Assembly (NCBI RefSeq): GCF_044647545.1
Contig: NZ_CP172818.1
Length of the DNA stretch: 64,000 nucleotides
Direction: 5' to 3' (one strand)
Origin: Escherichia coli
Lineage (GTDB): Bacteria; Pseudomonadota; Gammaproteobacteria; Enterobacterales; Enterobacteriaceae
In this document: positions 23,093 through 23,764 of the stretch, in pieces
Layout: every line of letters starts with the position of its first letter
Numbering within the stretch: position 1 is the stretch's first letter
Position numbers and translations under genes: made by a program
Notes under the pieces: generated by a model
Told to the model about the DNA's origin: nothing
Databases searched by the model: none
The model's input: only the letters and a program-made list of their open reading frames with translations

Positions 23093-23375
23093 AGCGATTC
23101 TCCATGAGGAAAATAAAATGCTGGCTGCCTGGTTAATTGCAGTGCTGGCGAAAAATAAATTTATTTACAATTCAAATGATTAGATATCACCACGGGAAGC
23201 TATTAGCGTATATATCCCGTAAAATTGCCGAATATTTCTGATAATTCAGCAAAAGCACGCCCTCTTTGTCAGGCAAAGTAGTACGCCACGTCTGAAGTGA
23301 AGAGTGCTGTGCGTTTCCCTTACAAAAGATATGATTTTGTTATCCATGATGTCATATTTTGTTAAACTCAAACGT

Positions 23376-23394
23376 GATAATGAGAATTATTATC
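23376..23394. promoter_or_regulatory. Fur box in the chuA-chuT divergent intergenic region
   Basis: GATAATGAGAATTATTATC, 17/19 match to the Fur consensus GATAATGATAATCATTATC. Confidence 0.6.
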
Positions 23395-23722
23395 GATCAA
23401 TTTTTTATGATCAAGCTTTTTTAACCGCCATTAACACAATAAACAGGGATTATGGAATCTTATCCAGCATCAGAAAACCATCCTGTGTTTATGGCTATCC
23501 CCCACAACCTCATCACAAAACGTTGTCGTTAACAGTGATAATTTTCTCTTCTCTTTGCTCTGCAAGCCGCGATATCTCCGGGTTCTCAGCTTTTTCCCGC
23601 GCTGAAATTTAATCGGTAACAAGAACGTTCACGACGAAGCATCTTGATAAAAATCAAAAATAAATACGCTTGTAACGCCGTGCGTATTGAATCGACGGTT
23701 GTATTTCATATATAACTCAAAT

Positions 23723-23741
23723 GATAATCATGATCATTCTC
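23723..23741. promoter_or_regulatory. Fur box overlapping the chuT promoter
   Basis: GATAATCATGATCATTCTC, about 16/19 match to the Fur consensus, roughly 25 bp upstream of the chuT ATG at 23765. Confidence 0.55.
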
Positions 23742-23764
23742 AATTTGATAAGGGTTCTCATATT

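Follow-up and report, generated by a model that had tools for sequence, protein, structure and literature searches.

The divergent chuA-chuT control region in an Escherichia coli sequence record: Fur boxes amid damage that is probably not evolutionary decay

The chu (shu) heme-uptake island of E. coli and Shigella lies between dctR and yhiD. It includes chuA, which encodes a TonB-dependent heme receptor, and chuT, which encodes a periplasmic heme-binding protein. By dRNA-seq, the 5' UTR of chuA measures 291 nt in O157:H7 (Sy 2022 PMC9002310), and the function of the chuA/shuA FourU thermometer has been demonstrated (Kouse 2013 PMC3660397). On the other side of the intergenic region, 5'-RACE places the shuT start 42 nt upstream of the ATG (Wei, Kouse and Murphy 2017 PMC5458455). 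The 19-nt Fur site of shuT, which has three mismatches to consensus, occupies +1 to +19 of the transcript; reporter fusions were Fur-dependent, EMSA showed specific binding, and a 5-nt truncation of the site abolished regulation (PMC5458455). In CFT073, Fur ChIP-seq gave peaks at chuA (height 3245) and chuT (height 2315), and by RNA-seq expression in the fur mutant rose 362-fold for chuA and 294-fold for chuT (Banerjee 2020 PMC7157518). The Fur operators, start sites and leader thermometers of chuA and chuT are thus already experimentally characterised.

Here we analyze a stretch of 64,000 nucleotides from E. coli (NCBI RefSeq assembly GCF_044647545.1, contig NZ_CP172818.1; one strand, 5' to 3'), referred to below as the window. 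Comparison with annotated intact loci assigns positions 23093-23764 (672 bp) as the exact chuA-chuT intergenic region, bounded by two start codons:

23092, minus strand: ATG start codon of chuA
23765, plus strand: ATG start codon of chuT

The window contains no new regulatory element. We hold it quite probable that this is the known chu divergent control region, with its two operators, and that the damage around it comes from sequence or assembly error, or from editing, rather than from decay.

PchuA, PchuT and their leaders

Within the 672 bp, two separate sigma-70 promoters are predicted, each with its own Fur operator. The elements on the chuA side are as follows:

23385-23414, minus strand: PchuA core promoter from a promoter scan, with −35 TTGATC (23414-23409) and −10 AATAAT/ATAATT (23391-23385)
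23376-23394, minus strand: Fur box 1, assigned as the chuA(S) promoter operator (GATAATGAGAATTATTATC on the plus strand; 17/19, 2 mismatches)
23093-23377, minus strand: chuA 5' UTR, ∼285 nt here versus 291-292 nt in intact loci
23090-23119, minus strand: FourU RNA thermometer (Rfam shuA_thermo, RF02597), lying over the chuA Shine-Dalgarno sequence

The scan reported the promoter as TTGATC-17-AATAAT at 23414-23386 on the minus strand, unchanged with respect to intact loci. When the chuA start determined by dRNA-seq is mapped onto an O157 locus (L006), +1 falls within the last bases of box 1, which corresponds to position ∼23377 (±1) here. With the start taken from this orthologous locus, Fur box 1 spans about −17 to +2 of PchuA, covering both the −10 hexamer and the start site. 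Fe2+-Fur bound to box 1 in this strain would be expected to exclude RNA polymerase from PchuA, a case of classical occlusion. Once free of Fur, PchuA would feed a leader of ∼290 nt with the FourU thermometer at its end.

The chuA leader carries private lesions, namely five deletions (7 nt in total) and three substitutions. Four of the five deletions and all three substitutions fall in the patch 23115-23144, the scrambled part of which is 23133-23144. Another private lesion, a contraction of a T-run, lies 3 bp upstream of the PchuA −35 hexamer. The thermometer scores 49.3 bits against RF02597, compared to a gathering score of 58 and to 60.1 bits for an intact locus (L002). Its hairpin is nonetheless intact, with all paired positions kept, and the drop in score comes from a 2-nt deletion in the unpaired 5' U-run. 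The sole other Rfam match in the interval, L13-Bacteroidia, is noise (E = 0.69), and inspection of the chuA leader by eye revealed no RfaH ops element.

A larger change to this leader is seen outside the intact loci used here. In the cryptic-clade Escherichia sp. MOD1-EC7003 (L009, NZ_PTRE01000013.1), an ERIC/IRU-like insertion of ∼130 bp is present in the chuA 5' UTR, at positions ∼60-290. Deeper conservation of the Fur box could not be followed in this genome, as the contig stops short of the box.

The chuT side is more compact:

23687-23716, plus strand: putative PchuT core promoter, with −35 TTGAAT (23687-23692), an 18-nt spacer and −10 TATAAC (23711-23716)
23723-23741, plus strand: Fur box 2, assigned as the chuTWXYUV operator (GATAATCATGATCATTCTC; 16/19, 3 mismatches), at +1 to +19 of the transcript
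23723-23764, plus strand: chuT 5' UTR of 42 nt, containing the Fur box and the reported shuT RNA thermometer, unchanged here

Counting 42 nt back from the ATG (23765 − 42) gives 23723, where box 2 begins and hence the position of the shuT site. The PchuT hexamers were placed from the shuT 5'-RACE start, and their assignment, made from the sequence, is plausible; the core is identical to that of intact loci. By binding immediately downstream of the PchuT start, Fur on box 2 would act in this strain as a roadblock. Since neither the boxes nor the core promoters differ by a single base from their counterparts in intact loci, normal iron-repressed behavior would be expected here too.

The annotated N-terminus of ChuT (23765-23915) contains two successive stretches that resemble signal peptides, MPRIITRPFLFSPLTLCISAVASAA and then MVKRKKLFTALLALSWTFSVTAA, the second beginning at an in-frame ATG at 23846. 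This ATG might be the real chuT start or an alternative one, in which case the 5' UTR would be ∼123 nt rather than 42 nt.

Fur-box strength, in vivo binding and conservation

To assess the two boxes, we scanned the 64-kb window for matches to the Fur consensus GATAATGATAATCATTATC with three or fewer mismatches, and compared the result to 100 dinucleotide shuffles. Only two sites were found, box 1 and box 2, and both also match the consensus on the opposite strand. The shuffles yielded a mean of 0.02, and none of the 100 reached four. We then scored the window with a position-weight matrix (PWM) built from 11 non-chu Fur ChIP-seq motif sites of CFT073, using 100 simulated 64-kb sequences as the null. 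Box 1 has the best score in the window, 25.2 bits, compared to a maximum of 20.6 bits in the simulated sequences (mean of maxima 15.3, sd 2.0). In the box 2 region, three registers that overlap within 23717-23741 score 17.2, 18.5 and 19.5 bits; the one at 23717-23735 overlaps box 2 and extends the Fur array. The PWM thus ranks the two chu boxes at the top within the window. The original prediction had named two Fur-box matches at these positions, one of 17/19 and one of about 16/19, and had called for a PWM scan that might have placed them below threshold. Our consensus search recovered the same positions and mismatch counts, and neither site falls below threshold under the PWM (box 1, 25.2 bits; box 2, 17.2-19.5 bits).

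One further PWM match was noted, on the minus strand at 20756-20774 (GCTTATAATAATAATTAGC; 16.7 bits), in the AT-rich spacer between slp and dctR. Chance alone gives best scores in this range, and the match is probably noise.

The intergenic region is itself AT-rich (GC ∼0.38), and AT-rich look-alikes of the Fur consensus that arise by chance and have no Fur function might be suspected here too. We regard this as having almost no chance of being right for box 1 and box 2. Two sites were found where 0.02 are expected, and box 1 outscores every simulated sequence under the PWM. Moreover, the motifs that FIMO identified under the chuA and chuT peaks of CFT073 are exactly GATAATGAGAATTATTATC and GATAATCATGATCATTCTC, the same 19-mers as in the window, so identical sequences are bound by Fur at orthologous loci, in vivo as well as in vitro. 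Both boxes are also invariant across divergent alleles. Consensus search, PWM, and the EMSA and ChIP-seq literature together rule the look-alike reading out. Because the motif exceeds chance, the same 19-mers lie under Fur peaks in CFT073, and the shuT site has been validated, the sequence evidence identifies the boxes as genuine and already known Fur operators of the divergent chuA and chuT promoters.

We next compared the region among intact loci, using an alignment of seven E. coli loci that represent two allele classes. No position of box 1 or its promoter varies among the seven. Box 2 and ∼200 bp upstream of it are invariant too, except for one substitution in one strain. Between the classes, ∼25% of positions differ in the chuA leader segment 23147-23345 and at 23464-23501, and it is against such divergent non-coding DNA that the boxes stand out as conserved. 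Both promoter-operator modules in the window are base-identical to those of the intact loci. Metagenome contigs with the locus carry the same boxes, 350-352 bp apart; the spacing in the window is 347 bp because of private indels.

On a larger scale, intact chuA-chuT intergenic regions fall into two allele classes, one of 1229 genomes (95-99% identity) and the other of 1007 (80-90%). Hardly any variation is seen across these classes in the promoters, Fur boxes and thermometer, or in the ∼240 bp upstream of chuT. The near-invariance upstream of chuT suggests either an old recombination boundary or constraint upstream of PchuT.

Lesions of the chu island and their likely source

In the sequence as given, none of the eight chu genes is intact: a deletion has removed chuS, and the remaining seven carry frameshifts. 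What is left of these seven is listed below:

21369-23092, minus strand: chuA remnant, with 14 small indels and 11 substitutions; frameshift at codon 234; ORF of 250 aa versus 660 when intact
23765-24674, plus strand: chuT remnant, with 7 indels and 7 substitutions; first frameshift at codon 50
24694-28972, plus strand: chuW, chuX, chuY, chuU and chuV (hmuV) remnants, all frameshifted, with 37 indels together

A 1394-bp deletion, whose junction lies at 21368/21369, removes all of chuS and the 3' 257 nt of chuA. This junction comes directly after the TGA stop of dctR, with microhomology of only 2 bp (GA) and without an IS or repeat. The claim that chuA and chuT are disrupted around the Fur boxes is therefore true of the sequence as written, with frameshifts at codon 234 of chuA and codon 50 of chuT.

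The intergenic 672 bp is hit at least as densely as the genes, with 19 private lesions, 11 of them indels. To ask whether sparing of the boxes calls for an explanation, we redistributed these lesions randomly over the 672 bp, treating the events either as independent or as clustered. Both 19-bp boxes escape by chance with P = 0.33 (independent) or 0.58 (clustered), and both complete promoter-operator modules with P = 0.06 or 0.33, respectively. The boxes were probably spared simply because, at 38 bp, they make a small target. Given a chance escape of P = 0.33-0.58, their retention provides no evidence of selection or residual function, and we reject selection as its cause. If the lesions are real, they must be very recent because the flanks are nearly undiverged, and unchanged promoters are then the null expectation. 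The original prediction that the boxes persist despite gene decay thus stands in one part, as the promoter-operator modules are indeed unchanged; their persistence carries no signal, and the decay is most likely not evolutionary. It had also been proposed that the sites titrate Fur. Fur is present in thousands of copies per cell, and these are two single-copy operators shared by every chu-positive strain; any titration by them would be negligible.

To put the lesions in context, we compared the window with ST648-like genomes in which chu is intact. Positions 29006-45000 are 100.0% identical to at least eight of these. Relative to one of them, FDAARGOS_497, there are no substitutions in 1-17500, no differences in 29010-47617, and only one 66-bp patch in 44717-64000. 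Leaving out the two damaged stretches (17.5-18.3 kb and 21.4-29.0 kb), differences from intact-chu ST648-like genomes in the ∼55 kb of flank amount to 3 substitutions, 2 small indels that stand alone and 9 indels within a single 66-bp patch. The island itself (21369-29006; 7.6 kb) differs from FDAARGOS_497 by 64 substitutions and 70 small indels. The island thus has ∼155 times the substitution density of the flanks (64 in 7.64 kb versus 3 in ∼55.5 kb), and its indels equal or outnumber its substitutions. By comparison, the natural intact alleles of SMS-3-5 and FDAARGOS_497 are separated by 212 substitutions and 1 indel over 18.7 kb.

The lesions are unevenly spread and strand-biased. Neighboring lesions lie within 10 bp of each other in 57% of cases, compared to 17% expected, and form 48 short scrambled patches, among which no common motif (e.g. 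a methylation site) is evident. Read on the plus strand, G↔A changes outnumber C↔T changes by 32 to 7 (p = 7e-5). This purine-transition bias is the same in minus-strand chuA, in the intergenic region and in plus-strand chuT to chuV. Because the bias does not flip between the divergent operons, it argues against a transcription-linked process and for a read-strand effect; transcription-coupled mutagenesis is rejected on this ground. Deletions also favor homopolymer runs of three or more (15/37 versus ∼16% expected), a bias that we dropped as a discriminator, since natural slippage yields the same.

We also looked for the lesions elsewhere. Among 2238 chu-positive complete genomes, the best is 98.1% identical. 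A lesion-bearing intergenic 33-mer is absent from GTDB species representatives and JGI metagenomes, which is weak evidence; the intact form, used as a control, occurs there in 1 and 10 contigs, respectively. The exact truncated ChuA (250 aa) is not on record as a protein, and no mobile element, DGR or similar was found at the island borders. Compared with what is expected of a naturally decayed pseudogene cluster, the island does show disrupted ORFs; the amount and spectrum of its lesions are not compatible with neutral change, and the same lesions do not recur in independent genomes or samples, although this last absence is weak negative evidence.

Damage in the window is confined to 21.4-29.0 kb and a second stretch at 17.5-18.3 kb, apart from an isolated 66-bp patch elsewhere. 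The second stretch (17500-18339), 3 kb upstream of the chu lesions, is an 841-bp collapsed copy of 1696 bp of reference carrying genes for an ArsR/SmtB regulator and a permease. It is A-rich and has lost ∼80% of its G's (373 reduced to 76). In its right half nearly every G has been dropped, and leftward it degrades to low-complexity A-runs, ending in a long one. Megablast with 17480-18360 gave no match in 5426 E. coli genomes. It has the look of a low-quality read with which a gap was spanned.

Three smaller differences from the reference were noted. The isolated 66-bp patch (48151-48216), in the yhjD-yhjE intergenic region, has 9 indels and 1 substitution, while the surrounding 19 kb is otherwise the same as in FDAARGOS_497; it may share the scrambled character of the chu lesions or may be a variable REP-like element. 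Relative to FDAARGOS_497, a hypothetical gene of 406 aa (18654-19874) has one substitution and lacks three bases in frame (TTA), at 19365-19397. The exact 406-aa protein variant is not on record, and these differences may be true features of the strain or may be more errors. Upstream of this gene there is a second substitution (T>C at 18342), which borders on the G-depleted stretch.

Taken together, the lesion pattern makes it likely that the damage to the chu region is non-biological, arising from low-quality consensus, gap-filling or editing. Neutral decay is argued against by the near-identical flanks, the 64:70 ratio of substitutions to indels versus the natural 212:1, the patches, the strand bias and the G-dropout. 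Two features fit an artefact less well. The damage coincides with accessory DNA, namely the chu island, which lies exactly between dctR and yhiD, and the ArsR/permease islet; and the 1394-bp deletion begins right after the dctR stop, which a simple coverage problem does not obviously predict. This match to the borders of accessory DNA could point to deliberate editing or an island-specific process. The same coincidence with island boundaries would suit the reading of the original prediction, a chu island that is genuinely pseudogenised, with Fur promoters that are still active and, under iron limitation, yield non-functional, prematurely terminated mRNAs, and that also bind a little Fur. Eight disrupted genes, two unchanged promoter-operator modules, an unchanged chuT leader and an intact FourU hairpin are all as this reading would have them. 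Were the DNA as written, both promoters would be repressed by Fe2+-Fur and induced under iron limitation, and downstream of the early stops Rho polarity would probably end the transcripts prematurely. We nonetheless consider genuine decay unlikely. The near-undiverged flanks leave no time for it, and ∼155-fold substitution density with indels matching or exceeding substitutions is not its mark. Nor are scrambled patches, a purine bias that follows the record strand independent of the direction of transcription, or a G-dropout stretch nearby; the lesions were not found in the other genomes and metagenomes searched. As for the part of this reading that concerns Fur, two single-copy sites common to all chu-positive strains would titrate it negligibly.

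A still less probable explanation is that the lesions are real and stem from localized, indel-rich hypermutation or engineered mutagenesis of acquired segments, the control region having been spared by chance. Restriction of the lesions to the chu island and the ArsR/permease islet, with sharp borders at conserved genes, is in line with this, and their clustering and strand asymmetry could reflect a single-strand process. On the other hand, no known natural process deletes G's selectively or produces such a spectrum over 7.6 kb, and there is no mobile element or DGR at the borders. The intergenic region is struck as densely as the genes or more so (19 events in 672 bp), and a similar patch occurs in the non-island intergenic region at 48151-48216. 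We therefore give little credence to a scenario in which a localized process destroyed the chu island and the ArsR/permease islet in a clonal ST648-like chromosome, leaving intact Fur promoters to fire into dead genes.

With error or editing as the preferred explanation, both 17.5-18.3 kb and 21.4-29.0 kb look like damaged sequence. The apparent pseudogenisation of chu in this record should not be used as a case of gene loss, relaxed selection or 'orphan' sites before the reads have been checked.

Comparison with known systems

The chuA side of the region shares with the chuA/shuA promoter of E. coli O157:H7, UPEC and S. dysenteriae the same GATAATGAGAATTATTATC, the same −35/−10 region, the same class of distance to the ATG and the same FourU hairpin. 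It differs from them in a leader that is ∼7 nt shorter and contains the scrambled patch 23133-23144, in a thermometer that falls below the gathering threshold, and, downstream, in a truncated chuA and the absence of chuS. On the chuT side, the Fur site has the same position relative to the ATG and the same number of mismatches (three) as the shuT/chuT site (PMC5458455), and its 19-mer is the CFT073 ChIP-seq motif. No difference from shuT/chuT is seen in promoter, operator or leader; the chuT coding sequence in the window is frameshifted at codon 50.

Promoters and operators persist upstream of pseudogenes where a genome has degraded recently, as in Shigella and host-restricted Salmonella. The window resembles these cases in having intact regulatory DNA upstream of disrupted ORFs. 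Pseudogenes of Shigella and Salmonella, however, typically carry few lesions per gene (IS insertions, single frameshifts, nonsense mutations) in genomes that have diverged throughout, whereas the window has 70 clustered indels in one island on an otherwise clonal background.
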